The notes below the pieces were generated by a model. That model had not been told where the DNA came from, did not search any database, and saw only the letters and a program-made list of their open reading frames with translations. From Mytilus trossulus (taxonomy: Eukaryota), in NCBI RefSeq assembly GCF_036588685.1, contig NC_086379.1:15872001-15936000 (forward strand): a stretch of DNA of 64,000 bases. The letters run 5' to 3'. Made by a program: the position numbers and the translations under genes. Below are positions 3,083 through 56,179 of the stretch, piece by piece (the first letter of the stretch is position 1; every line of letters starts with the position of its first letter).

Positions 3083-4911
3083 GGCATGTACTAAAAGCTG
3101 GAGTGGAGTGTAGTGGAGTATTGGAGTGGAGTGTTGGAGTGGAGTCATGGAGTGCAATATTCTTAATATATCCAAAAATTAATATCAATTTAAAGGTCAT
3201 TTATAATTGTTTTTGGTTTTTAAATTGCAGCACACAATGATTTTATATCATTTCATTTGACATACTTGATTATTCATTAAAGTTGGACAATGTTTGGGTA
3301 GCATTTTATGACAGCTTAGATGGAGGAGGGATGATGTAGTGTATCCTGTAATTTATTTTACTGTCATGAATTGTTGTATATTTCTAATAAGAAGGGGGAG
3401 GCAAAGGCCCAGTAACCTATGCAGTTAAAATTAATTTTGGAAGAGCTCACACAACTTTCATAAAAATACACATATTGCTTAATATGTTAATTTTCAAATT
3501 GTGGTACGTATTGTCCCTTTTTAAAAAAAAAAGTATGTCTTATTCCTGGCAAAATATGTTAGAATTAAACAGAGGCTAAAAATTTAACTTGTGATAAAAA
3601 AATATTATTAATATTATATTTTTGTCATCAATGGACATGATATAATAGAATTAAATTATCAATCAACTTTTTCAGTCACTTTGATTTTATCTTACATGTT
3701 AATTAAATGACAGAACTATTTAAAATAGTTTGTTTCTTCCGATTATAAATAGATAAGGAAAATGCATCTAGCCACCATCGCCTGTCCATAGAACCCATAA
3801 AACTGTCATTACTATAACCTTAGAAACTAAATAACTTTAATAGATTAGAAATGTGGTTGCTTTTGATTCATTTGATAAAATAAACAGATGTTAAATCAGT
3901 ACAAACGACACATTAAATGTTCTGCATATTATGAAAACAAGACAGATATAAGTATATAATGAAAACATTTTCAACAAATTTTATTGTAAAATTAAGACTT
4001 TGTCTATTGTCCTGAACATTTAAAGTTGAATTCCGAGCAATTCTAGAAAAAAAATGCTCATCTAATAAACTTTGCTTTATTTCATTAAATCTATGAATTC
4101 AAACTTTTTCTTGCACAATCAACATTTGAATGAAAATATGTGTTTGTAGCGAAACAGATTGTTTCAAGATTATAGATCTTGGAATTAAATACATTCTATC
4201 ATTTTAACACAAGATCATTTAGAACATTTCTATGTTTATCTGAAAATGATTGTCCACAGCCTAATCATTTTCTTATTATTCCAGCTATGAAAGTCAGATG
4301 GAATGGTTGGTCAGTTGAATCATGTCTTTGAACTTCAGTGTCTTGTTTTTTAAAATTATTTACACCAGAATGTTGGTCCTCAATGCTCTTCAACTTCGTA
4401 TTTTATTTGGCCTTTTTAATATTTTTGGATTCGAGCGTCACTGATGAGTCTTTTGTAGACGAAATGCGCGTCTGGCGTAGATACTAAATTAAGTCCTGGT
4501 ATCTATGATGAGTTTATTGTTAACTAACTTAAAGGTAACATTGCCAAGAGACCCCCTTCTAAATTATATTAGAAATCTATCATTTAATATTATTCTTGAC
4601 TTTTTTTTAATATTCTTTGGAGATATAACCTTAAAAAATGACCCTGATACATCCAAGGTGAATAATATTGGTATAATGAACATGAATGCAGTTGGATGCT
4701 GTTCAAACATTTAATCTATGGTTGTTTAGCTACACACGTATACACAATGTCTTATAAATTGGTTTTAGTTCCTAACTCATTGTTTTCACTCCGTGACTCT
4801 ACTCCACAACTCCACTCCACTCCACTCCACTCCACTCCACTCCACTCCACTCCACTCCACCACTCCACTCCACAACTCCACTCCACTCCACTCCACCTTT
4901 TAGTACATGCC
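3083..4911. mobile_element. Non-autonomous Mutator/MULE-like element with 9-bp TSD and (GGAGT)n/(ACTCC)n subterminal arrays
   Basis: TIR GGCATGTACTAAAAG...CTTTTAGTACATGCC. Identical 9-bp flanks GAAAATTGT at 3074-3082 and 4912-4920. Inverted pentamer arrays at about 3099-3154 and 4788-4896. Confidence 0.85.
4435..4478 (+). ncRNA. Type I hammerhead ribozyme motif in a partial retrozyme copy (about 4372-4518)
   Basis: GCGTCA-CTGATGA-GTCT(tttgt)AGAC-GAAA-TGCGCG-TC-TGGCGT: conserved core, stem II, minimal stem III, GUC cleavage triplet, and stem I pairing with two G-U wobbles. Confidence 0.8.
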
Positions 4912-13184: not shown

Positions 13185-13213
13185 CTTTGCTGTTGCTGTA
13201 TAAGATCTTTTAC

Positions 13214-13791
13214 TGTGATGTTACATGACCCAAAATCAAAGAACACTATAAATTTGGATATGTTTATTCCTCCTTCTACTGAGGGTAAAAGACTACAAAA
13301 AAGAAAATAACACAATGTAAATGACAAGCAAACATGCATGTATCAATCATATGATAAGTCATTTATAACAAACAATCAATATCAAACATAAAAATATTGG
13401 ATGAATAACACCGACTTTATACTAGTAAAATCTTGAAAATAAAACCAACTTTTTACGATTCACACGTTCCATACAGTGAACATTAAAAAATCTGACATGA
13501 CCCATGTGATCAACTCATTTGACGATTCGCACTTTTCATACAGTGATTTGAACAACGTGGTTTGTGTGTGAAATAATTCAAAGCGTATACTTTATAATCA
13601 GTAAAAATACTTATGTAAACTTTATATAACAATAGTTTTAAGATAAATAAATGTAAAGAACTTACTCTATGGCGCTTATAACCAGCAAATATAAGTGTTG
13701 AAAGCAGAACAAATTTGACAGGAAATGCGTCTGACATTACAGAAATACTAATAAAGGAAACAAATCGGAAATCCGTTCCGGTAACATTACA
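13214..13791 (-). repeat. 5' LTR of BEL/Pao element
   Basis: Direct repeat of 6634-7211; minus-strand AATAAA at 13263-13268. Confidence 0.96.
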
Positions 13792-15114: not shown

Positions 15115-18041
15115 CTGTTTTCTAAACTCATTCACCATATTAGCTGTACTAGACCGATCATACAAAAGCACAACATATCCGTTCTATTACTTTTAACACT
15201 TTTAAAATTTCCACTTCATTTGGATTTTCAATAACCTGCAGAAATGCTTCTGACAACTCCTCATATACGAACCATGTATCCCAAGCTGATTTCGTACCTT
15301 TCCCAGAAAAAGCTGAGACTGTGTCACAACCGGTAAATGAATGGAACAGTGGAAAGACTTTCAATTTCAATGGTCCTAGTGCAAGGCACAATCCATGAAT
15401 TGAAATATATAGAAAGTTCTTTCCAGTGCCAAAACCTATCCACAGCTGTTTAGCCATTTGAATTCCCCTTTTAATGCAGCTGGGAATGAGGACATATCAA
15501 TTGAAAGTTCTCCTTCAACTAATGGGATATCTGGTTCGATGAATATTAGTACAGCTGGTGGAAGATTTGAATAACTCTCTGGTAAAAGAGACACTCTCTT
15601 TGACTGGCATTTCAACATAAGTTCAGATTGGTCAAATGTTTGAACAACGCCTTGAACATCCTCTGAAATATATTGGAATAAAGATATACCTGTACCATGG
15701 AATGAATCTTTTAACGAGATACTGCTTGAATTGTGATCAATGTTGTCTACAGCAGATGAAGTAAATACATTTTGTAGTGGATTGGTAGGGCAAAAAAATA
15801 CCTTCTTTGACATAACGACGACAAGCATCCTTGGCCATGGAAGTAGAAATTTCTAACACTAGGTCGTAGGAGACAGACAGTCCAAGATTGAAGAAAGTAT
15901 ATACTAGATCACGTTTGCTAGTCTTACATGGATCATGATTCCCAAATAAGCACAAACTGGAGGTTCATGATCTTTCATGTGACGGTTGGATAGTTTCTTT
16001 GTACAACTATATACATCAGAAGATGTGCTATTGTTAATGTCGACTGAGAATATGAAAGATCCTGAATGTTAGGTCCAAATTGAATCATACTGACCAAAGT
16101 AAGCAATGACTGGGGTACATAAGCTTCCTGATATCCCTTTGGGAAAGTTTCTTTAAATTCTGAATTTGATGCGAAAATATCTTTACGAACAAACGTAGCT
16201 GATTTTGATATGTTGACAAACTCATTATCAAAGTCTTCTAAGCAGACTCTCTTCAATGCAGGTCCAATGTCATCATTGAAAGCAAGACTGTTTTCAAGAC
16301 CTTGTTTGTAAGCATCTAAGTTAGGGAAATTACAATTCTGTGTTTTAGTCGTGTACTATTAACTCGAGATGAAACATCTGCACCTAGACATGTTATTCTT
16401 TCCGTATAAAGTTTATATAGATCTGACAATCTGAAAATGCAATACCATGGATTTGACTTTCCTTCTTAGATTCGACATTATCATTTTTCATTTCAATTTG
16501 AGATGCACGATTATATAAGGAAACAAAACATTTAGAGTGGTACTTTGCTTCCTTTGCAATTAGATCACCAGCACTTAACTTTGCAAGTAATAACGTGTCA
16601 TTTAATTTTACTGCTCATTCTCTCACACGTGTATCCTGTCTAAACGTTGAGGACTCATGAAGGGCTTCTTGGCCATTTTCATTACAGAAAAAGCACACAG
16701 ACGGGTTACTGGTGGACTGAACGGAGAAGCTATGTCTAGTTTTCTTTTAGATTCGATTGCTTTATCATCTATTCTCTCATGTGAGGTTGGTTTTTCTGCT
16801 CTATCCAATTTTGTCCTGTTCAGTTTCAAGTTGCAAGATTTGTGCCAACATGCCTTTTGGTCAATGGAATACTGTGCTATTCCAGATCCCTCATCTAAAT
16901 ATAAGTTTTCAATGCACACATTAATGCCTTCAGGCATCAATCGTAATTCATGAAACTTCTAAATATTGTCAGCTAAAGATTGATAACCAGCATCAACATT
17001 GAGACGTTTAGAATCAAATGGGCATATACGTTTTTCATCTATTATTTCTTGGCATAGGATGCAATTTGCCCAATCAATATTATTTAACTTAATTGGTTTG
17101 TCATATTCTACACTTGATACCCTGAACGTCTTTTCAGTAGCCATGTTGTAAGAAATATGATCGTAAATTAGTTAAACTGTTTATATATTCCTTGTATATA
17201 ACTTCTGTATGCCAGACGCGTGTTTCGTCTACAAATGATGTATCAGTTACGCTAGAATCGAAAAGTTAAAAAGACAAAAAAAAAGTATGTAATTTAATAT
17301 TTAACGACCTGAAATCCTGAAAGTTTTGCAAAGCACAAATATTTGTTGATTATTAATAGCTTTCTAGATATACACGATATAGTTTCTGATAATAAGACTT
17401 TTACGGCCATTTTGAATTTGTCGGCCATTAAGCAATTATTTTTGATTGTTCCATATTCAGAAAAGATTAATTAGCATCATAACTAGCAATATGCAAAGTT
17501 TTTTTGCTTTTATTTTCAAATGATCAATTATACCATTTTTTTTTACTCTGCCTCATGACTGTTGGCGGCCATTTTGAATTTATCGGCCATTATGGAATTA
17601 TTTTGATTGTTCCATATTCATTAAAGATTAATAAGCACCATAACTAGCAATATGCAAAGTGTTGTGTTTTTATTTTCAATGATAAATTATACCATATTTT
17701 TGGACTCTGCCTCATGACTGTTGGTGGCCATTTTGAAATTGGCGGCCATTTTTGAATTTTTTTTTATTGTTCCATATTCAGAAAAGATTAATAATCATCA
17801 TAATTAGCAATATGCAAAGTTTTGTGCTTTTATTTTCAAATGTTAAATTAAACTATATTTTTGGACTCTGCTTCATGACTGTTGGCGGCCATTTTGAAAT
17901 TGGCGGCCATTGTGGAATTTTTTTTGATGGCTTCATATCCAAAAATGTTTATAAGCATCATAACTAACACTGTGCAAAGTTTCATGCTTTTACCATAAAG
18001 TGATCAATTGTCCCAAAATATTGGACTTAGCTGCTGGACTA
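15115..18041 (-). mobile_element. Decayed Academ (AcademX-type) DNA transposon, internally deleted and 3' truncated
   Basis: Frameshifted pieces: IDWANCILCQE, ACWHKSC, LIAKEAKYHSKC, LGLSVSYD, AVDNIDHN...DSFHGTGISLFQ, then XPG-like FHSFTGCDTVSAFSGKG. Minus-strand terminus TAGTCCAGCAGC at 18041. Confidence 0.7.
17404..17990. repeat. Subterminal tandem repeat (about 160-bp unit, about 3.7 copies) rich in GGCGGCCATTTTG motifs
   Basis: The GGCC of the unit-start motif recurs at 17405, 17567, 17726 and 17887. Confidence 0.85.
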
Positions 18042-23800: not shown

Positions 23801-26800
23801 CAAACACATCCCCAATGTTAAATTTTTTTGTATAATTGTAATTCTATATCCACGGAACTTTGTTGTAACAACAACAAATATTTTGCATCATGAACAACTT
23901 GTCTTTCCTCTATGTAATTTAAAGCTTAGGGACATGGAAGATGGACTTTTTAACTTTTGAAGGCCATATATTCACTTTCAACATTTTTTCATGCATTGCT
24001 TTATTGTATTGAAGGGTGGCTTTTTCCTTTGTGTTTACATTTTAAGTAATTTCTTTGTTATAGATAAGTGTTCGGTTTATTAATATTACGGTTTTTATTC
24101 TTTTCTCTGTCTTTTTGTCTTTTTTTCTCTTTTCCCTTTTCTTTTTCTGTAGGTCCTTTGTTTTCATCGTTGTTATAACTGTCGGTGGTAACATCGTTAT
24201 GTTCTGAATCTTAAATAAGTAATCATCATTGTTCAAATTATTTTTGTAAACAAACATACATATTTCAGAAATTTTTCGAAGTTTTTTGTTAAGATTTTTA
24301 AAGTTCATACATTCAAGAACCAAATATTAAAACAGCACTTAACCTTTCGTAGGAATGCGCAAAGCCTATATAATTGAAATCCTTTTGAAAATAATATTTG
24401 AAAACGCATTTTGGTTTTACATTTCGTTAACTACTTTGAAATTCATATAAAAAATTGAGAATTTCGATTCATGTAAAAATCAAAGTTAACGCAAGAATAA
24501 GATAGATCGAGATGAATTTCACGTGAGATGTATGTGAGAAAAATTTACCTGTATAAAGCACATAGAACTTTCAGTTTTTGAAAATGGTAAAAGCTTGGTA
24601 AAATTTTCTACCATCGATTTATTGTGGCCTCAGAATGATGTTTCATTGACGTTTACCTTTTATAAGTATATACTGTGGATTCATCTTTGTTATTCGTGGA
24701 GTACTAATTTTCATGATTTCGTTGGAAACAATGAAGAACGCCTTTTAACGATTAACCAATTGCAAATTCACTACAGCAATGTATGCAGAATTATCAACAA
24801 GACATTTAGTATTCACAAAGATGAAGGATTTTCACTATTAACAAAACTAGGCACCAACGAAAACACTACTTAATTTCCACTTCTTACGGTCAATTGTGTT
24901 TTTTTCGCCTTGTTCGGTTTCATCAACTCCTCATTTTTTTTCTTTATTCACACCACTGGGTCGATGCCACTGCTGGTGGATGTTTCGTTCCAGAGGGTAT
25001 CACCAGCCCAGTAGTCAACACTTCGGTGTTGACATGAATATCAATAATGTGGTCATTTTTATAAATTTCCTGTTTACAAAACTTTGAAGTTGTCGGAAAA
25101 CTAAGGTTTTTCTTATCCCAGTCATAGACTTCCTTTAATAGCCGTATTTGGCACAGCTTTTTGGAATTTTGGATCCTCAATGCTCTTCAACGTTGGGCTT
25201 GTTTGGTTTTATAAATATTTTGATTTGAGCGTCACTGGTGAGTCTTATGTAGACGGAACGCGCGTGTGACGTACTAAATTATAATCCTGGTACCTTTGAT
25301 AACTATGTCGTCTTCTGAATCACCGGATGTAGCATCATCGGAGTTTGATGAACCTACAAACAAAATAGAGATTACCACAATCTTTGGCGCAGAGATGTTA
25401 TCCGTTCCGTTTAATACTTCGTAACACTACATTCTATATCACCTCTGCCATGTGTCATATTAAGAGCAATATTACGGAGCATGTATGGAACGAATATGAA
25501 CTCTGCGCCGGAGATTGGATTCACAACACATTCCAAAACAGCTACAGTTCTTGTAAGCAATGAACCATTCATTCAAACATTAGAATCATAAGACCTGAAT
25601 TGTTTTAGTTACCAACTTTAGGATAAAGGGCATTCTCGTCGTGAAGTTATATTGCTGTAATTCACTGCAATAGCGGGTGAAACAATATTCAAGATGGATT
25701 GTAAGCGAAAGTACCCTTGTGAAAATCTACAGTATTTTTATATGAAGGATTTTTTTGTTACAAAGTATGCGTAAATAACGGGAATTCTTAACTATATCGT
25801 TGTTAAATTATATTTTACATTTTCAAAAGAATATAATGTATTCAATTTGAATAAAGGTTTTTTTTTTGCAAAATATATGCTTCATATTTAGATTTGGAAA
25901 GACAAGTTAAATTCATGACGGTACTCTTATCGTAATATATTGGTCTCATTTAAAAATATGTTACAAATAATTTCGAAAGATGAATCCTCCAATAAATAAA
26001 CCTTTATTTTTGTAATTTTTCATTAATGAATATTGTTCAAACTAAAAAGGTTATCATATCTTCAATCAAACAGCTACACTACAGACTCCCGACTTAGGAC
26101 AAGTAGGTGTGTAAAGGGGTAAATTATGGTTGTGAGCACTGTCAATCAACCCTATCACTTACAGTGACAGTTTGGTAATAGCACAATACTAGACAGAAGT
26201 GCATAAATAAGTTTAAATATTATTGACCTATTATATCGGTGATAAGTACAAACAAATTGAAACATCGGTGATAAGTACAAACAAATTGAAATATAGTTAC
26301 AAGTACAGTTTCAACACTAGAAAGTAATGTTTTCCCTAAGACTTTATAGTTAGTCAGTACAAGTGTAAAGCTCCTTTAAAAAATATTATATAATCTTTTT
26401 CATGCCTAAACTAATGAAATATGTATTATTTGTATGAATATTTGTGTTAATATAAATTATGTTTCCATTATTTTTAATTTGAATTCATTTGTCACCTTTT
26501 TACCTATATCATTAGCGCTCCGCTTATGCCGATTCTGTAATTCTTCTGCAATTAAAAAAATAAAATTGTTTGGATATAGTAAATATGGACAGTAAAATGT
26601 TAAAAAAAAAATCTCTCAGCTATAAGAATAAATGAGAAAAATTCTTTTGATTTAATTGACAATGGAATCGATTAAAAAGTTATGAGCAGCAAACATCTGA
26701 AAAAGTGACATGCAACACGAACCATCACTACTATTTTTTATTTTCATTTTTTGTTAAAATGCTTAGAAAGTGTGGAAAAGAGGGGGGTAATTTTCCCTTG

Positions 26801-34200: not shown

Positions 34201-34425
34201 GTATGCACGATATCTCATTGTATTCAAGTATAATGGAAAAATATATTCTTGTTAGTAATTGATGTAAAACTGTCATTTTCTAAAGGTCTGACAACACGAC
34301 AATTTTATTTAACAGATCACACCATGGTATATAACGTCTACTGTGGAGCATTATCGGCTGACTTTCGAAATTAAAAAAAGTATGCAAAAGCGAAGACAAA
34401 TTTGATTGTATTTACACATGTTTTA

Positions 34426-34665
34426 ATAGTTATCAAAGAATTCAGGCTTAAAATTTGATACTCCAGATGTTCGTTTCGTCTACATAAGATTCATCAGTGA
34501 CGATAAGATCAAAATGGTTGTAAAGCCAAACAATTACAAAGTTGAAGAGCACTGATGACCAAAAATTCCAAAAAATTGTGCCAAATACGGCTAAAGTAAT
34601 ATATGCCTGGAATAAGAAAATCCTTAGTATTTTGAATAATTCACACTTTTGTAACCAGTAAATTT
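34426..34665 (-). mobile_element. 5'-truncated retrozyme copy with hammerhead motif (34460-34503)
   Basis: Minus strand CGTCA-CTGATGA-ATCT..AGAC-GAAA-CGAACA-TC-TGGAG; same 3' end (GATAACTATT) as the copy at 49366. Confidence 0.8.
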
Positions 34666-35268
34666 GTAAAAAAATATTGTTAAAAAATATATAAAACTAC
34701 TGATAATTTTTTTTAATCTGATACAATACATATCTCATGTATCTGTAGAACAATTTGATCATGGCAAATAAGCGTAAGACATGTAATTGTATTAACTAGA
34801 GGAAAATAAGAAGAGTTTCTATGATTACATATCACATAGTCCAGGATTCACTTAGAATATCTGTATAGGATAAAAACAACGTAGTAGAATAAGATATTTC
34901 GCTGATATATGACGTAAGACTGTCATCATAATGTGCGCCACAACCTGTAAACCTGTATTAAATGAAAATATTTATTATCCTTTTTTTTTAATGTTACATT
35001 AAATGTGTATATTTATACATTCAATTTGTCTTTAATATTATCTATTTGTGTTTAAGCAGTTACCAAAAGTTGTACATATACGTTACACACGAGACTGAAA
35101 GATACATAATTATACAATGTTTTCACATAAAGAGGTACACAGTTATCATCAAACATTGAAGGCATATTCAATTAATTCCAAATAAAACATGTAAATTTGA
35201 GCGTTTAAACTTTTCTTCTTTTAAAATGTAAGAAAACTTGAAGCACTGTCAGTCTTTTAGCCATCGCT

Positions 35269-36707: not shown

Positions 36708-37559
36708 AATCATAATCTTTCAGTCAGTTTAATTGAAGTCTGGAGCTGGCATGTCAGTTAACTGCTAGTAGTATGTTGTTATTTATGTATTATTGTCATT
36801 TTGTTTCTTTTCTTTGGTTACATCTTCTGACATCAGACTCGGACTTCTCTTGAACTGAATTTTTTAATGTGCGTATTGTTATGCGTTTACTTTTCTACAT
36901 TGGTTAGAGGTTTCGGGGGAGGGTTGAGATCTCACAAACATGTTTAACCCCGCCGCATTTTTGCGCCTGTCCCATGTCAGGAGCCTCTGGCCTTTGTTGG
37001 TCTTGTATTATTTTAATTTTAGTTTCTTGTGTACAATTTGGAAATTAGTATGGCGTTCATTATCACTGAACTAGTATATATCTGTTATGGGGCAAGCTGA
37101 AGGACACCTCTGGGTGCGGGAATTTCTCGCTACATTAAAGACCTGTTGGTGACCTTCTGCTGTTGGTTTTTTTTTATTTGGTCGGGTTGTTGTCTCTTTG
37201 ACACATTCCCCATTTCCATTCTCAATTTTATATTACTTTGTTTCTGACACAAAATGGTTAATTTAGGTGCCAAATTTATGTTTTTTAGAAGAAAAATGTA
37301 CCGACGGTGATAGAATTCGAGTTTCAGGTAACATACAGTCTCAAAGTTAGTACCAACAAGTCGAACATTTTTTTTACGTAATCTGTTTTTAAAGCATTTT
37401 CTGGACTAAGCAATAAAAGTAAAAAACAACTTCAAACGTTGTACAATGTTTAACTCTCACCTTCATACATACTCCTTGAACTACGGTGAAGAATGCAATT
37501 GAAATACATTTAATTAGAAAAAAAATAACAATTGCTAATCAATAGGCAGTTCTTAAATT

Positions 37560-38760
37560 GTGAAATGCTTAAAGTTTAGAGAACCCCAACACTTCAATTG
37601 GAATCATAACTTCAAAATGATTATGGACTCCATTGAGGACTATGCCAGAGCACGGGCTAAACGAGATGAAGTAGAACTGGACACTTTGTCAGCATGGGTC
37701 AAAACAATCCGGTCTCTGATTAAACGTTGCATTCATAAGCTGAAAAACTGTGTGAATGGTCGACCGAAATCCGTTTTCAGAGACAAAGAGACTGTGAAAT
37801 GTCTTTCATCTCTTCACGATAAGTATGTTGTTGTTACTGCGGACAAAGCTTCAAATAACATTGTCTTTGTATGTACTACTACGAGTGTCTTGTAAAAGAA
37901 TTAGGTATACACGAACACTCAGGTAATCCCATATACTAAAACATATCATTTGACAAGGATGAGATTTTGGCGAATCATAAGTCCTTCATGGCTTCAATGA
38001 ACATAACCTCGACAAATCGGAGGACTTACCTTGTTTGTATTGGATACTCAAGCTTCATCAAATTCAATACAAACAACGGTACATTGCCGGCTCATCTGCA
38101 TGTTCGACTAAAGAATTGTCAAGTATTTAAAAAAATCTATCCGCAGTGACAGAGGATTTTCAGAAAAACTGTAAAACTGTTTACTCGCGTAGTGGTATTA
38201 ACCATACGTGTATGTGGATTGAAAAAAACCTCTATAGAACTTCTGGATAATTTCAAATCTCGATCATTTTCTGAAATAAGTTCTATCAAAACTTTCGATT
38301 TTTCAACTCTGTATACCACCATTGAAAATTGAAATTGAAAAATCGTCTAAAAGAAATAATCTACATTGATTTTCAACATAACGCTATAAATTTATTACTT
38401 CGGGATACCATACGGCATATTTTGTTAATAGTGAACAAAAAGGTAAACATGCTACACAGAGGAACAAGTGATCAGTATGCTGGAGTTTCTTGTTGACAAC
38501 ATATTTGTTGAATTTGGAGGTAGACTTTTTCAACAAATTGTCGACATTCCTATTGGAACAAACTGTCCGCCTCTCCTTGCCGACCTCTTTTTAATTTCAT
38601 ATGAGTCGGAGTTCCTTCAGACACTTGTCAAAGATCAAAGAAGATAGATCATTTAATTTAAAATTTAGATATATTAATGATGTTCTTTCCATTAACATTC
38701 CAAACTTTTCTGATTGGGTTAATATATCCCCCAGAACTAGAATTTAAAGAAACAAACACG
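37560..38760 (+). pseudogene. Degenerate Penelope-like (Naiad-type) RT of a second subfamily
   Basis: KFREP, ADKASNN, LYWI.KLH, KTFDFSTLYTTI, FLVDNIFVEFGG, IPIGTNCPPLLADLFL, FRYINDVL, with many frameshifts. Confidence 0.85.
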
Positions 38761-40209: not shown

Positions 40210-41825
40210 AAATAAAGGCAACAGTAGTATACCGCTGTTCAAAACTCATAAATCTATGGACAAAAAACAAAATCGGGGTAACAAACTAAAACCGAGGGAA
40301 ACGCATTAAATATGAGAGGAGAACAACGACACAACACTAAAATGTAACACATACAGAAACGGACCAAGCATCAGACAAAATCCCACGAGAATAACAAATA
40401 TAAAATCAAAACCAAATGCATGAATTTGGGATAGACAAGTACCGTGACACGTCTTATCGCAATGTGAATTTACACTTAAAAATAAGAGAAAACAAACGAC
40501 GCAACGTTAAAATGTAACACACACAGAAACGAACAATAATATAACAATGGTCATATTCCTGACTTGGTACAGGACATTTTTAAAGGAAAAAATGGTGGGT
40601 TGAACCTGGTTTTGTGGCATGCCAAACCTAGCACTTTAATGGCAATGTTAAATATAACATTGAAATGACAACATAATATTACAGGAATACAATACAAACA
40701 AATGGGAGAACGTATTAGACAAAGAAACACATGATTAATAGATAACAAAAAGCATCAGGTTTAAAATTTAATACGCCAAAAACGCGCTTGGTCCACACAA
40801 GACTCACCAGTGACGCCCAGATATAAGAACATCCCTATTATTTAGAACAATTAATGCTATTGCAAACAGTAAATTTTATCAAATGAATATAAAAGATATA
40901 CATAATGAAACTGAAGTATTAACTAACTACAGAAAACAAAAACCGGAATACATAATGCAAAGACCAACTTAGAATAAACACACCCGACTCAGTCCAGGCA
41001 TCAACGCAATAAATCATAAAAATGACGTCACATACGATGGTGAAAAGGCACAAAAATTACGTCACATTTGAATTTATGAAATTTCTGGAACAGCACAAAA
41101 ATGACGTCACATATGAAAAACTATATCTCAAAAGTAAGATAGAATTAGGATTGATTTAAGATTATAATAGAACTAAATACTGATATTACATTTAAATACA
41201 ATGCATATTGCAATACTTATTAATAGCAAGTAACTATAATATATATATGTCCAGTTTGTTATGAATCCAACTTCAAACGTAAATTATCGTACAGATTACG
41301 TTGAACAAAATTAAATCTAATAAATGAAGGCGGTGATTAATTTTTCTTTCCATAACACATAAATATAATAGTAAAGACGTCAACACATTTGACAAAATCC
41401 GATGAGAATTACAAATATAACATTAAACATTTAAACTAAATACATGAATTTGGGATAGACAAGTACCGTAAAACGTCTTATAGTAATGCGAATTCACACT
41501 CAGCAAAACAGTCACAATTGGGAATAAGTCACGTTTGGTAATTATAAGATTAGACGACATAATGACAAACCACAATCTACCATGTGGTGAAAATGTTCTT
41601 AGCTAGTTTGTTCAAAGACACATCGTATGGATCCACCAATTCGTGATGGTGTCCATAAAATTTACGGAGTGTCAATTTTAATCTGTCCTCCTCATAACTT
41701 TGTTGGAGCAGTTTCTGCGTAAGGAGCACACTCCTGTATATGAAGTCCGTATAATGTGAACAAGCACGTGAATAACGTATCAATTGTGATATGTAAACAC
41801 CATACGAATGGGCAGATGATATGTA
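40210..41825 (-). mobile_element. 3' end of a Penelope-like element (RT thumb at 41577-41825 plus long 3' region with degenerate hammerhead at about 40771-40818)
   Basis: SYGVYISQLIRYSRAC...LTQKLLQQSY...LRKFYGHH. The 3' region has internal repeats (40420-40475 vs 41445-41500) and GCGTCA-CTGGTGA-GTC...GAC-CAAG. Confidence 0.75.
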
Positions 41826-42494: not shown

Positions 42495-45400
42495 TCATCT
42501 TTCATGTAGCCTGATCATCGTTATTTCCGATGATATCTTGGTTTCATTCTTTATGTGTTCAGCTAAATCAAAGTCATTAACTTTTCTGTCAGCTATATCT
42601 ATTTCGTATTTGGATCTATTCAGTCTCTCAAAAATAGCCGGGAGAATTACGACAATAGAACTAGTAACCATAGAAACTCCTGCAAAGTAAAATCCGGATT
42701 GATATGCGCCGAACTTGTCTGTCAAAAATCCTATAAAATAAAATAAAAAAAATCATAAATCGAATAGATACTCGTCGTTTAAAAACTAGAAGATTGTGTA
42801 TATTGATGTCCTGTATCAAAATTAATGTCCATTTCAATCTTTCCATTGTATTTGAGGCTTTACCGAAATCTAGTCGATAACCTAGTACAATATATTACCT
42901 CACAATCAATTGCGGTCACAAAATCTGATGAAAATGTTTTAGGTAGTGTTTTCCTGGTTGTATCGAGTGTTTATATTGTTACTGTTCTTTTATTCTTGGT
43001 CATTAGAGAAAAGTACATTTCCTTGTCTGATTATCTCAGTACTGGAATTTACTAGAAAAATCATTAAACACATTTTAACAGACATTAAGCCTTATTGTCA
43101 ATCAATTCATAAAAGATGTATCATTGTGATGACACTGAAACATACACAGCGCATTGCACGAGGACGAAATTATCCAGTTATTACATCAAGCAAAACCAGT
43201 ACTAAAGAATCAAGCAATAAAAAAAAGAAAACATACTTGAGTCAGTAATGGGTATAAATAGATTAACATGTAAATGCTATTTATATAATATGAGTTGTTT
43301 AGTTTTTTTAATTTGATCTAGATTACATACCTGCCATAGGTGGACCAACGAGGAATCCAAGACCTTGAAATAACAGAGCTATACCACATGAGCTGGCCAG
43401 ATTCTCTATTCCGAGAAGGTCCACTAAAATAACTGGTGGCAACACATTGTATGAGCCGCCAGCAAATAATCCTAAAATACAGGAATATAACACAAAGTGC
43501 CAATATTGGCTGGCAAATACACAACATATGCTAGAAACGCCACTTGTGAAAATAGCAATCACATACAAGTTCTGTCGATTCTTCTTAAAAAACTTAATGT
43601 CACATAAAATTCCAAGCATTATACGTCCAATAATATCCGCTATCCCAGATATAGACAAAAGGATGGCTGCATCCTTCGATCTTATACTGAATTGCATTGC
43701 CAAGGCTGGCAACATAATAGATGCAGGTGAGTGGCCAAGCGTTGCTAACATAAAAGATATACATAAACAAAGAAAGCGATTATTTGTCAGTAATGTGTAA
43801 TCGAAATAATCTTTTACAGTTTTGTTTTTTTCAATAATTGATTGTCGGCACTTTTTATCATTGTTGTCATTGATCAGTTTCTCTGATATAATTGTATTAG
43901 AAATTTCGTTGACTGATTTGTTTTGAATCCTTTCCTGAACAGCAGCCACAGCGAAATCAGTCGATTCATCATTTGTAAATACTTTATTTGAAATCCCTTC
44001 CAAACTAGATACTTTGTGCTTTGCGCTTTTGGGGACAGAAAGAAATAAAGATCCACAGACACACATATTTAACATTACACCGCTCATAACCAGCATTGTT
44101 CCTTGGAAACCGTATTTCCTCAGGAGAAATTCCAAAAGTGGTGCAAAAATAAAAGTCCCTACTCCTGACCCAGCTGTTGCAAGACCGTTAACGAGTGATC
44201 TTCTTTTATCAAACCATCTCCCTACTATTATAATACTTGAGATGTTTGCCAATGACTTTCCAATACCTAATCAAACATATATGATATATTGCATTAAAAT
44301 GACAAAAGTATGCTAGCTGAACCAGGTTCAAAGCAAAGATAGTTGTTTTCGCATATTCATTTATAAAAACGTATAATCCTTGAAAGAAATAGCACTTGTA
44401 TTTTGTAATTCTGCAGAAAAAAATCTATCTGATGTTAGTTGTTTTGGATTAAGCTTTGTAAAAGTCGTTTCTTTTTTGTACATCGAATCTTTTGATGTCT
44501 TCGTTTTGACAAACGTGACAATATCAACTATCTTATTTTAAATTTCTGATGTATCAAGCAAGAACATATCTATTGCACTATCGTATGGTGTTAAGAATGT
44601 TGTTGCGCGAAGATTATGTACAAAGCACATAAAACCTAATGGCATATTTTTATCGCACATTCACTCCACAATTTTTATATCCATACTTAATTACAAAGAA
44701 TAATATTTTTTAAAACGAGATTATATACGATTCCAATGAAATTTTCAGATTATTTTTTTTTAACGATTTACCTGTTTATTTGGAAAAGGAAACGCATTTT
44801 TCAGAACGATAACTTTATCTTGTAAAGTACATTCATATTTACGGATGCTTCATGCAATGATAGCCAAGTTTAATCCCAAAACAAATCGGTGTATACAATA
44901 TGTGGACAATGAAGTGTAGATCTGGAACAATTAAACTGTGCGGAAATGAACAAATAATATCAAAATAATGCTATAATATCAAACAGATCAAAGATGAGAT
45001 GGACAAATCTATGTTTGTAAACATTGTAAATGAAGGCAAAGTCCTTCAACCTTTTTTTGGACAGTACCATTAAAGACATAAATAATCAAACAGAAATTGT
45101 GAATAAATAGAACTCGAAGCTAGAAACATGTGCTATGAAATGCACCAACATCGTTCTAAAAGGATATAATTATGACCATAAGTACAGATCATGAGAGTCA
45201 AACGTATATCAAATTTGAAACATAACAGTAACAATACATTCTATCATTCTTAAACATTGTTCTGAGTGTGGGCCTTTTATACGAAGAACTTTTAATTTAA
45301 AGACTGTTTCTTTTATCTGATATAAAAAAAAATAAACTTGCGATGAATACATACATGTAAATATCAAGATGTAAATACGTTAATCCCACATATCTACTTA

Positions 45401-48089
45401 TATGCACTGATCATGGGTTTTTAAGCTTTTCCATTAAACACGTACATTTGACGTAACCACCACTAAATAATACACATTTTGTATCATGTGTATCATGCAC
45501 ATTGTGTGTAACATAAAGAACCTTAAAGTATAAATGATGGGTGTGGGTAATTTCTAACTGAGACTTTTAAGTTTGACACGTGGGCATAGTCTTTCTTCAA
45601 CACTATACCATACGAAAGTGTTCAACATCCAATTAAAGAAAATATAAGAAATTGAACTGAAATATCACGCAACTGCCAATGAAATAAACCTTACTGATTT
45701 AAAGAGTTATATTCTAAGTTCTAAGAACAAAAAGTACTATTACAATTTGAAATTACCTGCTACAAGGCCGTAAGTTAAAAACATATACTCTATTTTAGGC
45801 ATAAATCCTGTGGTGAGCCAACCAATAGACGTAAACACCCCTCCGACTACAGTCATTGAGCGACAGGAAAACCTTGTGCTCAACGCACTTGAGAGTGGAC
45901 CTGAAAAGTATAATTTTATTTGTTAACGGTATTGCGAAATAAGAATCGTTCATTTTGATGAATTTCACTTTTTGAATATATTTCTGTTTTCAATAAAGTT
46001 TAAATATTTCGAATAGAATATATACATATTAAAGCTTTAGGAAAATGTTGTTTGTGCTGTTTTTAGACACTTCTACTACGAAATTTGTTTTACATGCACA
46101 CGTATAAACATTGTGGTTTTTATCCAACGCAATCATAGGTTTGAACGTAGTTTTCAATTTAGACTCGATTATAAAAGTAATATATATATATATTGACAAT
46201 CGTATGATAAATAAAAAAAAATAGAATAAACTGTTCTTTTTCAATTTATATAATACAGAACTAATCTTACTGAAAATTAAGGCCATTGCGTTAGCCACGG
46301 AACCAACCCAAGCTGTTTTACTTGCATTCTCGTGGAATAATTCCAATAATTCAACGTATAATACACCAAATGTGTTTACAGCACCTCCGATTAGAAGGTG
46401 AATTATCACTGCACCTGTAAACCAAATAAATGTGTATAAATTTATGAATACACAACTATTATGTATAGATGTAACAGTTGTAAATCATATTTGAATTTGT
46501 AAGTAGACCGTTTGTTTTCCCGTTTGAATGGTTTTACACGTCCAGTAATTTTTGGGACCCTTTATAGCTTGCTGTTCGGTGTGAGCCAAGGCTCCGTGTT
46601 GAAGACCGTAAGTTGAGCTATAATGGTTTACTTTTACAAATTATGACTTGGATTGAGAGTTGTCCCATTGGCACTCATTCCACATCTTGTTATATCTATC
46701 CATCAGTTTCCTGTTTTTATTTTGGCAGGTTTACATTATAACTCTAGTTAAAAAAAGTATTGATTTTTATTATGTTTCTTACACAGAACATACATGTATT
46801 CGATAGTCATTCATTGTATTCTAGAAACGAATTTATTTGCGTAAAAAAAGTAGGTCAGTGTAACTGGCACTTTATTCATTAACTTCGATACCAAAACAAA
46901 CTTAACGTGACGGTACCCAAATTGCACCTATTTTGACAGTTTTTTCACCTACGGTTTTTTATGATCAAGACAAACATTCTATTCTGTGTTTATTTTGTAG
47001 CCGTATAGTTCTTGATAATATAGGTACACCAATTTGATTTTTAATCCATTGCATCCATGCTTAAATTCACACCATTAAAAATCAAATAACAGATATTTTT
47101 TTTTTTTTTTCAAATATTTAGAACAATTTGACTTTAGTACAAACTCACTATTCATTTTTTTCTAAATTGATGTTTGTGACATTTTTTTTTGTTCATTTTT
47201 AAAAGATGACTTTTTGTGAACGTCGCATGGTGGCGTTTACGTAAGTTTTTCTTTTCCAGTGAAAGTTTCATCTGTTGATATAAATTGTGAACGTTTAGTG
47301 TATATTTGAATATTTTAACCTATTTTGTAAGACGTGTATATTGTCCAATAATCCAAATACAAATTGTTTAGTCTCAAAGAAAAAAATTAAGAGTTTCTCA
47401 GCTGTTTATGTTCAATAGATGCAATTTGGGTACTCGGTGCAATTTGGGTACCGTGAAGTTATACACCAACTTCTTTGTTGTTCTCAAACAGCTTGTTAAG
47501 CCAGATGTTGAAAACGTTTATTCAATTTGATGTCACTGACATTTTTTTTTATGCTGCCACTTTATGCTGTTACGATTGTCAGAATTCATTGGCCGTATAC
47601 ACTTTGTCGTTAGAAAAAGCCTTGTTTGTGACGTTGAAATCATAACGCACATATTAATCTATGACGTCATTAATGAATGCAGGTTCGCGGAACTTTAGAG
47701 TCGTTCTTTCTAAATTCATTGTTATTGATTTTAATCCAAAATGGTTCATTCAAAACATTCCAAGAGATGCAGTATAAATGGAACAACCATAGTTGTCTCA
47801 AAATAATACATTGTAGTTGTACTAGTTTCTAATTGGATATAGAAATGCCTCGCAAAGCCTCACATTCTATCTGTTTCTTAGTCTTGTACAAGTCCATTTA
47901 TATATTGAGTCAAAATATAGTTATTCTAAAGTATTTTATTATTTCGATTTAAAATATTCAACTTATATATATTAATTGTAAATAAATATTCTTACCCACT
48001 ACTACAATCCATCCCCAACCTCCATCAGGAGCTTGTACGTCGTGATTTGCATCGTTATCTTCATCTTTCTTTTCAAAAGGTTTGGACAT
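42495..48089 (-). CDS. SLC16/MCT-family monocarboxylate transporter (MFS), about 517 aa
   Basis: Exons 48089-47996, 46414-46271, 45900-45757, 44266-43331 and 42730-42495; all introns GT-AG and phase 1; total 1554 nt. Motifs PDGGWGW, WFDKRRSLVNGLATAGSGVG, GIADIIGR, GPPMAG. Confidence 0.92.
46905..47459. mobile_element. TA-flanked MITE in MCT intron 1
   Basis: TIR ACGTGACGGTACCCAAATTGCACC / GGTGCAATTTGGGTACCGTGAAGT; TA on both sides. Confidence 0.8.
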
Positions 48090-49365
48090 CACTCTGAAAG
48101 TTGTTTTAGCATGTATAACTATATTCAGCTGTTCTCGTGTTTTAGAATGTACAAGGAGCAATGGAAAATCTATTGACCGAGAACAATAGAACATTTAACT
48201 CTTATGAAAAAGTCGTGAAAATCAAATCAGTAATGCTGGTGATGATAGAGGCTAAAAGTTATTTCTAAACAGCATTGAATTTCGTACATTTAAAAGAAAT
48301 AATTTATCAAACTGTTTCTTTAGAAAATCATGTCTAAACAACATCTAAAGATCTTTCCGTTCAACAATTTTCGGAGTTTTCCACAAAGTACATTGCATGT
48401 TACAATTTTCACAAAATGTACCTCTTTCACATCTAAGTGTTCGAGTTCACCAGTTTGTCGGGTGAACGTTCAATATAGAAATATTGGTTTTCCGTGAATA
48501 ATACAGTTTAAAAGTCTGTCATTGCAGGTTAAACAAAATAGAAATGAATATTTTCATTAAATAGGTTATCCGTCCAAATTTTAAGAGAAAGTCGTCTTGT
48601 TTTTTTTTTGTACATATATTTGCGGTCTTCTCTATCAATTTCCATGCAATGTTTACATAAGGATAAGGACCGTTTTAATTTCATTGATATATTCACTTCA
48701 AAAGTATTAAATCTGTAATCTAGCTGCATACATGTACTGATAATTTGCAAGTTCTAGAGAAGTATACAGAGAGTAGAAAAAATATTTTGAAGTTGGTACT
48801 CCAGGATTATTTTCGCATAGCAATATTTTACACCAATTTTGTACCAAGCTCGTCGTTTGTTATTTATAGTAAATGAGAACATTAAATGGAAGTTTTATTT
48901 TTCCCTTTCTGAATTTAATTTTATTTTCACTATTAACAGAACTTTTATTCGTTAACTTATAATTGGTTTCAAGTTTTCAGTGTTTTCAATGATAACCTGA
49001 ATAGGGAACCTGTCAAGCGGTATTATATGGTTTTTATAATTTTATGCATCCTGCCAATTCGGTCATTCGTAATGTTCTTGTCTATCGTATTTGCTTGTGT
49101 GCTTTATGTTTTGAGTGTTTATATGCATTTTTTTTATATTTGTTTTGTTGACATATTTGTTACTTTTGTATTGATTAAGATTATAAAACAATGTTTACTG
49201 CTGTACCCCAATATTTGACATTTTTACCTTTTATGACTGTTTGTTTTGATCACACATCGTTATCAATATAATGGTATTTTATGGGACTGTCATACATGTG
49301 AGATGTTTCGTTAGCTATAAAGCTAGGCTTAATCCTCCATTTTCTACATAGGAGATGCCTGTTCC

Positions 49366-49755
49366 AATAGTTATCAAAGTACCAGGATTATATCTTAATA
49401 CGCCAGACGCGCGTTTCGTCTACATAAGACTCATCAGTGACGCTCAGATCAAAACAATTAAAAAGCCAAACAAATACAAAGTTGAAGAGCATTGAGGACC
49501 CAAAATTCCAAAAAGTTGTGCCAAGTACGGCTAAGGTAATCTACTCCTGGGCGTAAGAAAATCCTTAGATTTTCGAAAAATTCAAAGTTTTGTAAACAGA
49601 AAATTTATAAAAATGACCATATAATTGATATTCATGTCAACACCGAAGTGCTGACTACTGGGCTGGTGGTACCCTCGGGGACGAAACGTCCACCAGCAGT
49701 GGCATCGACCCAGTGGTGTAAATAGTTATCAAAGTACCAGGATTATATTTTAATA
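49366..49755 (-). mobile_element. Retrozyme: 355-bp unit plus a terminal partial repeat, with an intact type I hammerhead
   Basis: AATAGTTATCAAAGTACCAGGATTATAT occurs at 49366 and again at 49721 (period 355). Non-coding. Confidence 0.9.
49400..49443 (-). ncRNA. Type I hammerhead ribozyme (intact)
   Basis: Minus strand GCGTCA-CTGATGA-GTCT(tatgt)AGAC-GAAA-CGCGCG-TC^TGGCGT; predicted cleavage between 49406 and 49405; palindromic minimal stem III. Confidence 0.9.
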
Positions 49756-50082
49756 ATCCAAATACAAATTGTTTAGTCTCAAAGAAAACTTTTAGGAATT
49801 TCTCAGCTGTTTTTGTTCAATAGATGCAATTTAGGTACTCGGTGCAATTTGAATACCGTGACGTTATACACCAACTTCTTTGTTGTTCTCAAACAGCTTG
49901 TTAAGCCAGATGTTGAAAACTTTTATTCAATTTGATGTCTCTGACATTTTTTTTTATGCTGCCACTTTATGCTGTTACGATTGTCAGAATTCATTGACCG
50001 TATACACTTTGTCGTTAGAAAAAGCCTTGTTTGTGACGTTGAAATCTTAACGTACATTTTAATCTATGACGTCATTAATGAA
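49752..50082. repeat. 331-bp duplicate of MCT intron 1 segment 47347-47677
   Basis: Colinear, about 16 substitutions counted by eye. It includes the right end of the intronic MITE and that MITE's unique flank. Confidence 0.9.
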
Positions 50083-50468
50083 AGTCAGGAATACGACAGT
50101 TGCTTTCCATTCGTTTGATGTGTTTGAGGTTTTGGTTTTGCCATTTGATAAGGGACTTTCTGTATTTAATTTCCCTTGGAGTGCAGTATTTTTTTATTTC
50201 ACTTTTTTTTTAACACAACGTCTATATATTCCAACACCATTCATTATTGAAATATGTATGAAACATTAGATGCGATTCAAATTACCTTTGATTTTTATTT
50301 TTCTTTGCTTTTGTTAACAAGTTAAATTTCTAGTATTATTTAAAATTTGTAACTTGTTTACAAGGCAGGATCGTGGATTCACGCATATGAGTAAAACATT
50401 TTCTCGTCCCTGCCTTATGAATCAGTTGTGTGATGTATTTACATATGAAAATATATGAGCTATAAACC

Positions 50469-52890: not shown

Positions 52891-55472
52891 TTACATGTCA
52901 TCAATGTTCAAGATTGGTGTAAATATCTCCTCGAGCACATTTTCTATCTCTCTGCTCTGTATGGACTGTAGGATCTTTCTTAGCCAGGAATCGATGCCAT
53001 GTTGTCCACAATAAAAGGGAATATTGAGGTATTTTCGTATAAAGTTGTACATTTTCATTGTGCCTGGAATAAGATAGTACAATATTTAAGAGAATGTATC
53101 GAAGAATGTATGAGATGACTATTTCTGTCGCAATATCATATCGAACATATTGAAATTTTACGACAGACCTAGATCATTTAAATAGAATTTGAACGGTAAT
53201 GTGTAACAATTAAATTTGAGTATTAATTCTAATGTTTAGCCCACTTCTGGGTAAGTCTTCAAAAAGTTAGCTTAGTATTAAAAAATTTAGAAAAATATCA
53301 AATTTGACTGGAAAATATTTAAAATGTTTAAATAAATTGATAACAACAACCTTTTTGACACCGCCACATTTTCACGTGCCTTTTCCATTCTCGTCAGTAT
53401 TTGTCGTATGTCAAATTTTTTTTTTTCCGTTTTTTAGATATATGGGTTTTGATAGCAGTATACTAATGTTTTGGTTTAATTAATTTTAACTTTTTAAGAC
53501 TCGGTACGATTTAGAGTGTTACAAATAAAAAAACACACCTGTGATTGTTGGAGACTGCATGTTCGCTTTTAATGTATTTGGCTTATTTTTGTCGCTTGGT
53601 TGCTGTTCCATAATTGACGCTTATCCCATATCTACTTTTAATCATATTAATGCTGTCTATTCATGTGAATTTCACCATTAATTTTAGTTTATCATTTTTA
53701 ATAATAGAGAGGCTTTTATCTCCCCATCGTTATGATTTTATATAAGACAATATAAATGTTTATAATCTACCTTTTCCCATCTGTTTGGCGGCATCTATAT
53801 TTCCATTACATGCATTTTTGTAAAGGGTACACATTCTATTTGAGAGACGTTCCCCAGCTTCTGTGTGTTCTTTTCCTGATAGGAAATTTGTCTCCTTCGA
53901 AGCCTTTTGTTTAGATAAAAACAGCAAGTCATACCATTCTATCTCCTTTAAAGTCGACGTAATGTCGAGATATTCTTGCGCAAGTAAGTCAATTTCTTTA
54001 AGAACGAGATTTCGGAGGTGACGTAGATCGATGGCCTGTGCAGTCAGAAGAAGTAGGTTTGCTGTCATCATTTGTACAATTTCAACTGCCTCTGAGGTGA
54101 ATCGCGCGGAGACTAAAGCCATTGAATTGATTGCCTGGTTGTGGCATTCTGCACTCAATATATGATTACTCATAGGGTTGACAAAATGATCGAGTTCAGA
54201 CATGTAAGAGGTCATTGCTATATCACAGCCTTTGAATCCGAAATCAACATTGATGTCACATCCACTTAGATTCGGTGGCAATCCGAAATTCAGCTTATCA
54301 TTTACAACCTCTTCGAATAGAGCAAATTGTAGCTTCCCGCAAATTCCAAGCGCTTGTCGTGTTTGGTCCATTGCGATAGACATAGTTTCTCCCTGGAAAT
54401 TAGCGTTATGTAAAACTGTATCTGTGCGATGGTCAATTAGTGGATTATCATTTGCGCTGTTAAGTTCAATTGTTATTCTTCTGCATGCTTCGTTAAGTGT
54501 TTCAACAGCTGGTCCAAGCCATTGTGGTGAACTCCGCACACTATAACGATCTTCCTTAAGAACTCCACATTTGTCTGGCAGGTTCATGTCTAATGTCGTG
54601 ATAGCTAACTTACTACCTTCTAGAATTGACAACATATTCCTTGCTATTTCTTTCTGACCTATATGAGGAAGACAGTTGTGGATAAGAGGATGGAAGCTCT
54701 CTGTTCTTCCTTTCACTGCTTCAATTGACAGTCCGGTACATACTTGGGTAAGAAGAAGAAGCAAATTTGCGTCATAAAGTGTTGGAGCCGAGAACCCGGC
54801 AGTGAATGAACATGAATTTATTACCCCTAAGCCTTCCTTTGGGCCAAATACAATCGGTGATATACCAGCCTCTGCAAGAGCTTGTGGACAAGACATTATT
54901 TTCCCTCCTTTAAACACTTTCATATCTTCTCTTCCTATCATGGTTGCTGCAATATAACCTAGAGGCATCAGATCTCCGCTAGCACTAACAGATCCACGCA
55001 GTGGAACTTCGGGCACAATATCGTTATTGATAAGATCAGTCAGAGTTGTGACCACTTCAGCACGTACTCCAGAATATGCTTTTGCAAGACAATTTGCCCT
55101 CGTTACCATTGCAGCCCTAATCATTTCTAAAGGAAACATTCGACCCATTCCAACATTTACAAGACGGATCAACGCCATCTGCACATCTTCAAATTTACAC
55201 GAACGCACGTCGGAACTTCCACCGAAGCCTGTGTTTATCCCATACAAAACAAGTCCTTTTTCTAACTTCTTTTTTAGATACACTGCATTTGCTGTTAACT
55301 CTTCCATGGATATTTCAGCAATTTTTACTTTCATGCTTGGCTCAATGCTGACTGCAAGGACTTCTGGTATGGTTAAAGTAGTTCCATCGAGCGTGATACT
55401 GTCTAACGTGTTTTTCCTTTTTTGGATGAATGTTAAAGTTGTTCTTGCATGAGAATTATCCATTTCTGTCAT
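52891..55472 (-). CDS. MIO-dependent aromatic amino-acid ammonia-lyase/aminomutase of PAL/TAL/PAM type, about 624 aa
   Basis: Coding exons 55472-53771 and 53063-52891 (phase-1 GT-AG intron; 1875 nt including stop). Motifs YGINTGFGG (catalytic Tyr), PLRGSVSASGDL (ASG/MIO, 54975-54983), KEGL..IN, DRYSVRSSPQWLGP, NDNPLID, NFQG, GFKGCDIAM, SAECHNQAINS, and C-terminal MYNFIR..L.I. A splice acceptor at 55491-55492 with an in-frame stop before the ATG suggests a 5' UTR intron. Confidence 0.93.
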
Positions 55473-56179
55473 TTTCCCAAATTAAAGAACCTGCGTTATG
55501 GATAGATTATTTTACATGTTTTACATCATACGAAAAAAACTATGTCTTTTTAATAAGATAGAAACATGAATTACAAATACAGTATTAATTCCGTTAAAAA
55601 TAATACAGAGGCTTCTTTCTTAGTAATGCCTAAGAACTATAAAAAATTAATTCATTTGTTTGGTATAATAGTAGTTCTACGTTTGTAGTTAACGTTTGAA
55701 ACGTTTTCAAACATTAAAAATGATTTATCGACAGCCCCGATAATATTATATGATAATTTTGAGTGCCTTTTGAGACCTTCGCAAAATATCCATCCTAGTC
55801 TGACTTCAGACATTAACATACAAACAAAACATTACACTCGAAATCTCAAAATGTCCACGAATTAGAAAGTAATTGAGATTGATTTAAAAAATACTATAAA
55901 AGGTCTACCATTTATAACTAAAGCCAAACATAGACGATACTCTTGGTTTTGGACAGACCGTCATAAGAATATGTGACATGCCTATACTACTTACCCCTAC
56001 CCGCCCTGTTGACCTCACCACCCCATCCTCACTTGTAATAATGATCAGAGTATAAGAATAGGTAAATAAAATATTGTTATATTCTATTACATTTGCATGA
56101 TGTCGTTCCAAATAAGCCACTTTACGTTAAACATCTGTCCATCTTTCCATCGCATTTATTACAGAAGGATATTTAATAA

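Follow-up and report, generated by a model that had tools for sequence, protein, structure and literature searches.

A 1.1-unit hammerhead retrozyme copy in Mytilus trossulus and a common 3' end point downstream of its predicted cleavage site

Introduction

The genome of the mussel Mytilus galloprovincialis contains ∼5000 type I hammerheads within repeats of 350-390 bp (Cervera and de la Pena 2020, PMC7229834). A cloned single repeat self-cleaves at ∼0.1 per min, and circles are the major RNA form in mussel northerns, with linear forms in the minority (PMC7229834). The invertebrate form of stem III is reported to cleave as a monomer (PMC7229834, PMC7761336). For retrozymes it has already been proposed that a circle is copied for more than one unit and that Penelope-like elements (PLEs) are responsible for mobilisation (PMC7229834, PMC7761336). 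The 2020 review, in the part available, states that there is no conserved motif to reveal the retrozyme partner (PMC7761336), and the route and the enzyme by which animal retrozymes return to DNA are still presented as a hypothesis in the accessible text of these two papers and of a 2026 preprint (PMC7229834, PMC7761336, 10.64898/2026.07.22.740005).

The protein of the PLE PAc (Poseidon, Anolis carolinensis) nicks AT-rich DNA and starts reverse transcription inside its own RNA (Frangieh et al. 2024, PMC11167929). The start sites are fixed at 111-118 nt into the ORF, which places them 85-92 nt past the hammerhead cut at +26; RNA is required 3' of the start, up to +172, uncleaved RNA is used as template, and the genomic ends coincide with the start sites (PMC11167929). 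Retrozymes and circles are not mentioned in that paper, as judged by a term search of its accessible text. A tail of 30-40 bp is a known PLE trait, described as an optional extension beside the pseudo-LTR (Craig et al. 2021, PMC8557442), and vertebrate retrozymes have been linked to PLE pseudo-LTRs (bioRxiv 10.64898/2026.07.22.740005); the available part of that preprint holds no mapping of copy ends. No earlier mapping of these copy ends came up in literature searches on retrozymes and on templated insertions, conducted mostly outside subscription journals.

Here we analyse a dispersed hammerhead repeat (copy A) of Mytilus trossulus. It lies in a stretch of 64,000 nt (contig NC_086379.1, positions 15,872,001 to 15,936,000), hereafter the window.

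Results

Anatomy of copy A

Copy A is oriented on the minus strand and consists of the following parts:

49366..49755, minus strand: retrozyme copy A, in which 35 nt from the preceding round are followed by a full 355-nt unit (49720->49366)
49366..49405, minus strand: tail stretch of 40 nt from the predicted cleavage site to the common 3' end, the end being the putative start of reverse transcription
49721..49755, minus strand: second copy of the tail stretch, at the 5' end of copy A; 5-9 nt are missing between it and the upstream cleavage position (49760)

The initial annotation had reported a periodicity of 355 bp with about 30 extra nt of a second round. Positions 49366-49400 and 49721-49755 are identical at 34 of 35 bases, which confirms the period of 355; the other periods from 340 to 369 give just 7-15 matches of 35. 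The estimate of the extra round was a fair one: the terminal redundancy measures 35 nt including 2 nt and 4 nt common to the flanks, hence 29-35 nt. The 2 nt are the AA at 49366-49367, common to the element and the target site. On its 5' side the unit is preceded by the tail and then by local DNA. Both tails carry the rare allele T on the plus strand (3% of reads at 49393, and 1-2% at 49748), so the two tails come from one template lineage.

The 355-nt unit has a GC content of 40%. None of its three sense frames holds an ORF of more than 50 codons, the longest stop-free stretch being 50 codons. Size and content are those of a metazoan non-LTR retrozyme (150-450 bp, non-coding, low GC, type I hammerhead), and a unit lacking an ORF is not an autonomous Penelope-like element, which carries an RT and GIY-YIG ORF on a pseudo-LTR. 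The retrozyme identity proposed earlier is supported by the non-coding unit, the hammerhead motif and tandem copies in DNA (see below). By genus, size and ribozyme type, the family of copy A is likely the published Mytilus non-LTR retrozyme. Copy A itself is a dispersed 1.1-mer. Since it carries a single ribozyme, it is unable to release unit-length RNA by double cleavage, or a circle, and under the two-ribozyme rule given in the available part of the 2026 preprint (10.64898/2026.07.22.740005) it would not count as "active".

Hammerhead motif

49400..49443, minus strand: type I hammerhead, Rfam RF00163, 33.0 bits, E 1.8e-6, full model

The RF00163 score is just below the gathering score of 34, and Rfam at the gathering threshold gave no match in the window. 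All the structural elements of a type I hammerhead (core CUGANGA, GAAA and UH; three stems; stem I open) were found in copy A. The core CUGAUGA/GAAA is intact at all positions, stem I has 6 bp, stem II has 4 bp with a 5-nt loop, and stem III has 2 bp closed by a palindromic 4-nt GCGC loop (core and stems read by eye). Cleavage is predicted between 49406 and 49405. The complete hammerhead of the initial annotation holds as a motif. Its suggestion of dimer cleavage via a minimal palindromic stem III is not supported: stem III of copy A has the ordinary invertebrate retrozyme form and not the minimal, dimer-dependent PLE-type form, which lacks the non-conserved helix III nucleotides, and the M. 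galloprovincialis repeat self-cleaved as a monomer (PMC7229834). The palindrome could still pair between two molecules. The active hammerhead fold lies 3.5 kcal/mol above the local minimum and was not returned by minimum-energy folding.

At unit positions 31-60 (49661-49690) the sequence looks like the hammerhead core in reverse complement, with its spacing kept, perhaps as a remnant of an old inverted duplication or by chance. Two functions were considered for this segment and rejected. As a blocking strand it fails: when copies A and B were folded as circles and as linear molecules, 0 core bases paired with unit positions 20-69. As an opposite-strand hammerhead it has no stem I and a G at position 6, and variants among the reads break its GAAA yet keep the sense hairpin.

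Other copies and their common 3' end

Six copies (A-F) were found in the window by blastn. The five besides copy A are:

24945..25306, plus strand: copy B, exactly one unit from unit start to common end, 87.7% match to unit positions 2-354, hammerhead core mutated
34425..34672, minus strand: copy C, a match to the 3' 248 nt of the unit only, same 3' end (34426), stems II and III damaged
40737..40822, minus strand: copy E, a short decayed 3' fragment in the same 3' end register
4368..4479, plus strand: copy D, near-intact hammerhead with a different tail of ∼35 nt beyond the blast match
17208..17282, minus strand: copy F, a decayed hammerhead fragment, too decayed to call its end

The copies at 25306, 34426 and 49366 had been said to end at one point about 40 nt downstream of the cleavage site. 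All three indeed terminate at GATAACTAT(T), a point that follows the predicted cleavage site by 39-40 nt. Four of the six window copies (A, B, C, and E at 40737) share this register, and the variant tail of copy D stops at about the same point. Hammerhead pattern scans gave no match in viral contigs or in prokaryote genomes and two metagenome loci (L001 and L002), both of which have the common 3' end. The hammerhead is intact in copy A and the two metagenome loci, nearly so in copy D, and mutated in core or stems in copies B and C. No poly(A) or simple-repeat tail was present on any of the eight aligned copies. The same eight have no indel at the cleavage position, nor is there one among the 12 of 18 indels listed, which indicates a template covalently continuous at that position. 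A 12-letter end motif searched with one mismatch matched four times against 1.64 expected; since 10 of 100 shuffles scored as high, the motif is not significant alone, and the end-point case rests on the long homologies ending there. Four tandem copies of ∼160 bp were observed at 17346-17999, adjoining the decayed copy F.

The repeat was found in at least 24 sequencing runs, mollusc and gill metagenomes among them. Four of these were aligned to 49326-49795 with a likeness of 85%. X22 and X23 are raw RNA reads from a single study, and X4 and X2 are contig sets presumed to be DNA. The run counts refer to the best 24 of 1970 entries for loose ends and to 15 of 690 for joints. Loose ends that start at 49376-49379, where a single base differing from copy A interrupts the match, numbered at least 665 + 127 in the contigs of X4 and at least 788 in those of X2. 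Their consensus still follows the element as far as the common end and is AT-rich from there on, which indicates an end fixed across hundreds of distinct flanks. The agreement of 0.57-0.60 is about the expectation from 14 conserved letters of 30 (with assumed rates of 0.92 and 0.33). The fixed end point holds outside the window as well, with ∼790 contigs in each of the two presumed DNA runs ending alike.

Head-to-tail joints (back 356) were found in at least 10 contigs of X4 and at least 15 of X2, with up to 46-50 letters on the shorter side. Tandem copies, a mark of metazoan non-LTR retrozymes, thus occur at the family level; the contig counts give no share of tandem copies because identical junctions collapse. 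The RNA reads also contained two well-agreed alternative tails (at least 343/395 reads at 49398 and at least 218 at 49717; agreement 0.84-0.88). They are at least two more family variants, one like copy D and one with a tail running into the unit start.

RNA of the family

The RNA evidence comes from the two runs of one study. Reads placed on 49326-49795 numbered 6545 of 8.71 million in X22 and 7623 of 8.25 million in X23 (751 and 924 per million). The difference between first mates on the plus and on the minus strand is flat across 49406-49693 (1107±89 and 1149±124). If the library follows the usual convention (strandedness is assumed), this excess is hammerhead-strand RNA over the whole unit. 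The minority orientation shows a ∼4-fold rise toward the hammerhead end, which fits passively transcribed truncated copies.

The unit end was joined to the next unit start in at least 387 and 443 reads, and 81% and 86% of these have the orientation that RNA of the hammerhead strand should show. The shorter side reaches up to 74-75 letters, so that part of the joined reads covers the core, the cut site, the tail and the next unit. Loose ends at the unit junction numbered at least 507 and 693 reads, so that among the matches listed 43% and 39% were joined; 39-43% of the reads at the 3' end go on into the next unit and 57-61% enter other sequence. No pile-up of read starts or ends was seen anywhere in the two RNA runs, the cleavage site included. 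The abundant, strand-biased and junction-spanning RNA is compatible with circles or with uncut tandem transcripts. The RNA joints are no proof of circles, since head-to-tail joints also occur in the DNA contigs. Over the left flank of copy A the RNA depth was 0-1 reads, which leaves transcription of the copy A locus itself without read support.

GC-rich domain after the end point

49636..49720, minus strand: GC-rich folded domain at the unit start, candidate reverse transcriptase binding site

In a circle or multimer, the common end point is followed immediately by this domain. Its 85 nt, with which the unit begins, have 60% GC vs. 34% in the rest, and they fold better than shuffles (z -3.1 in copy A and z -4.9 in copy B); the whole unit as a circle is no better folded than shuffles (z 0.06). 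Two variants at 49687 and 49683, which would convert one G-C pair to U-A, have a similar frequency (11-18% of RNA reads; the frequencies are per position and do not imply linkage in the same reads).

Insertion site and the 331-bp passenger

49244..49367, plus strand: left half of a split unrelated repeat, aligns to 29472->29350 and ∼28830-28900
50082..50207, plus strand: right half of the split repeat, aligns to 29351->29225 and ∼28899-28970
49752..50082, plus strand: 331-bp copy of window positions 47347-47677, 94% identity by blastn, 309 of 325 positions identical inside

Copy A interrupts another repeat between CCAA and GTCAGG, and intact relatives of that repeat are present at 29225-29472 and near 28830-28970. 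The AA on both sides of the insertion limits a target duplication to at most 2 bp. The 331-bp piece, whose donor is 2.4 kb away, is joined to the 5' end of the retrozyme via a 4-nt microhomology (AATA). Templated pieces occur at retrotransposon junctions. From the layout of the sequence, the retrozyme and the 331-bp piece fit one composite insertion. The piece differs from its donor by 4.9% (∼2.5% a side) and copy A departs from most reads at roughly 2% of positions (∼8 among the best 40 of 166 entries); this similar divergence also fits one event.

The donor segment begins inside an element with terminal inverted repeats (∼46908-47458, by eye) and extends ∼220 bp past its end. The target site is within a CCTG..CCA.GTCAGG motif, also found at 29344, 36966 and 40558 (the split site being 49359-49367/50082-50089); the motif is common to the split repeat and the 3' part of a Naiad-like element.

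Penelope-type fragments and other genes in the window

Broken Penelope-type RT frames are located on the plus strand at 35242-36587 and 37557-38700. A long 3' non-coding part follows the first, to ∼37235, and the second has a DKA motif, which is given for Naiads in the available text of Craig et al. (2021, PMC8557442). Pfam recognised none of the four RT-like ORFs. Comparison of the retrozyme unit with the Naiad-like fragments or the split repeat gave no similarity above shuffles, save one weak score among eight comparisons (3 of 100 shuffles as high).

A minus-strand frame of 573 codons at 53760-55481 encodes a phenylalanine ammonia-lyase-like protein (PF00221). It matches a Mytilus galloprovincialis protein over 85% of its length with 99% identity and an M. 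trossulus one with 90%, which places the host in Mytilus; relatives are found in Mytilus, other bivalves, Lingula and annelids, then plants and fungi. An uninterrupted minus-strand frame of 1915 codons (7473-13220) lies between direct repeats at 6634-6933 and 13214-13513, which are 100% identical over the 300 nt reported and mark a young LTR retrotransposon. By its motifs we take this element to be probably of the BEL/Pao type. Exon-like frames of an MFS transporter gene are present on the minus strand at 43323-44270 (PF07690) and 46029-46484.

Discussion

The present data show how the repeat is built, that copies have a 3' end in common, that the hammerhead motif is intact, that RNA of the family crosses both the cleavage site and the unit junction, and that the target site was split. 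We consider it likely that copy A is a 1.1-unit Mytilus hammerhead repeat inserted by a Penelope-type endonuclease/RT acting in trans, which copied from a fixed internal site 40 nt past the predicted cut on RNA continuous across that cut, either a circle or an uncut tandem. Ends fixed 3' of a hammerhead and an AT-rich target are a genomic signature of Penelope-type mobilisation, and the mussel repeat bears it while having no ORF. If copying starts at +40 and the binding domain is 3' of the start, a full unit can be obtained only from RNA that continues across the cut site.

On this model, tandem loci would be transcribed, cut and ligated into circles. The enzyme would bind the GC-rich domain beyond the start site, nick AT-rich DNA, prime at the fixed site and copy back through the hammerhead. 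An early stop would give copies C, D and E, a stop after exactly one unit would give copy B, and a stop 35 nt further, near the upstream cleavage position, would give copy A. In the last case, the free cDNA end may next have used DNA 2.4 kb away as template for 331 bp and only then have been joined back to the target.

The initial annotation had reverse transcription primed at a fixed site on a circle or multimer and able to run past one full unit. A fixed end, seen also beyond the window, and a template continuous across the cut and longer than one unit were retained from that proposal; the template may be a circle or an uncut multimer, and tandem DNA exists. Copy B would be one turn of a circle, and the stop of copy A near the cut is what a linear RNA cleaved at its 5' end would give. 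The extra round of copy A ends 5-9 nt short of the upstream cut, and linear cut RNA is no worse an explanation of this than a circle copied beyond one turn. Within the favoured explanation we judge the two to be about evenly balanced for copy A, the linear RNA being one that was cleaved at its 5' end but not at the downstream ribozyme. Each is backed by one copy, and full-length 5' ends numbered only two.

A SINE-like route would make use of a linear one-unit transcript, from unit start to common end, with a LINE- or Penelope-type enzyme priming at the RNA 3' end; copy A would derive from tandem read-through trimmed by the upstream ribozyme. Copy B, as exactly one unit, is what this route predicts. 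It also agrees with the majority of RNA reads entering other sequence at the 3' end, and the window and run data show no circle. However, read ends pile up neither at the common end nor at the unit start, a large minority of the reads continue into the next unit, none of the aligned copies has the poly(A) or simple-repeat tail, and circles are the major form in the mussel northerns (PMC7229834). We regard this route as unlikely.

End-to-end template jumping is known for R2 enzymes, and jumps usually add or lose bases. If linear cleaved monomers were the template, the enzyme would start at +40, reach the cleaved 5' end, jump to the monomer 3' end and continue, which would yield exact units and cut-site ends without a circle. 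A single RNA species would then account for both copy A, whose 5' end is within 5-9 nt of the cut, and copy B. The cut position is seamless in 8 of 8 aligned copies, which argues for covalent continuity rather than jumping; furthermore, linear forms are the minority in mussel (PMC7229834) and the anole element used uncleaved RNA (PMC11167929). Jumping on linear monomers is thus quite improbable. Still a little less probable is a DNA-level event, in which an exact monomer was inserted and repair synthesis duplicated its 35-nt tail, as it did the 331 bp, making copy A uninformative on the RNA template. The 5' junction of copy A bears clear signs of templated copying of the repair kind, and the rare allele shared by its two tails is compatible with local duplication too. 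Against such an event, the tail meets the unit start in its natural register and scarless, the same junction is common in DNA contigs and RNA reads, and one extra template switch would be required.

The favoured model of internal priming on continuous RNA can be taken one step further. The mussel circle may carry its own landing site for a Penelope-type RT, namely the conserved GC-rich domain right after the fixed start and 40 nt past the ligated junction. The circle would be copied directly, for one turn (copy B) or slightly more with cDNA displacement (copy A). We put this forward as a tentative reading, more doubtful than not. If it were true, the first cis-element and start site would be defined for animal retrozyme mobilisation. 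A single start 40 nt past the ribozyme together with the folded domain matches the internal initiation described for a Penelope-like element in 2024, and the RNA is thereby defined well enough to serve as a substrate in vitro. Circle and multimer could be told apart computationally by where thousands of genomic copies have their 5' ends.

Comparison with known systems

A circle copied for more than one unit is already the published model (PMC7229834, PMC7761336), and a Penelope-like element has been shown to initiate internally at a fixed site downstream of its hammerhead (PMC11167929). The element itself has very probably been described before, and the fixed start site is a modest new link, mostly joining two published results.

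In the accessible text, the M. galloprovincialis retrozymes (PMC7229834) are like the family of copy A in genus, type I hammerhead and unit size (350-390 bp; construct Mg353), and also in a GC content of 40%, the lack of an ORF, high copy number, abundant RNA and several variants. They are described as tandem repeats, whereas copy A is a dispersed 1.1-mer with one ribozyme. The accessible text of that paper holds no copy-end mapping that we could find; its supplement may hold ends or the same sequence.

PAc, as described in the part of the paper available (PMC11167929), resembles the mussel repeat in ends fixed downstream of a type I hammerhead, AT-rich targets, a template uncut at the ribozyme and a lack of RNA-seq reads that end where the ribozyme cleaves. 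The anole element is autonomous and carries an optional tail, and its two start sites fall within the ORF, in an AC-rich stem-loop; the mussel repeat has one end point at 40 nt and no ORF.

The Penelope pseudo-LTR with its tail (PMC8557442) and the vertebrate retrozymes (10.64898/2026.07.22.740005), from what is available of both sources, share with the mussel family a partial tandem with short terminal redundancy, a hammerhead in the repeated part and many monomeric copies. The PLE tail is optional (PMC8557442), whereas the mussel copies have a shared 3' end and extra bases on the 5' side.
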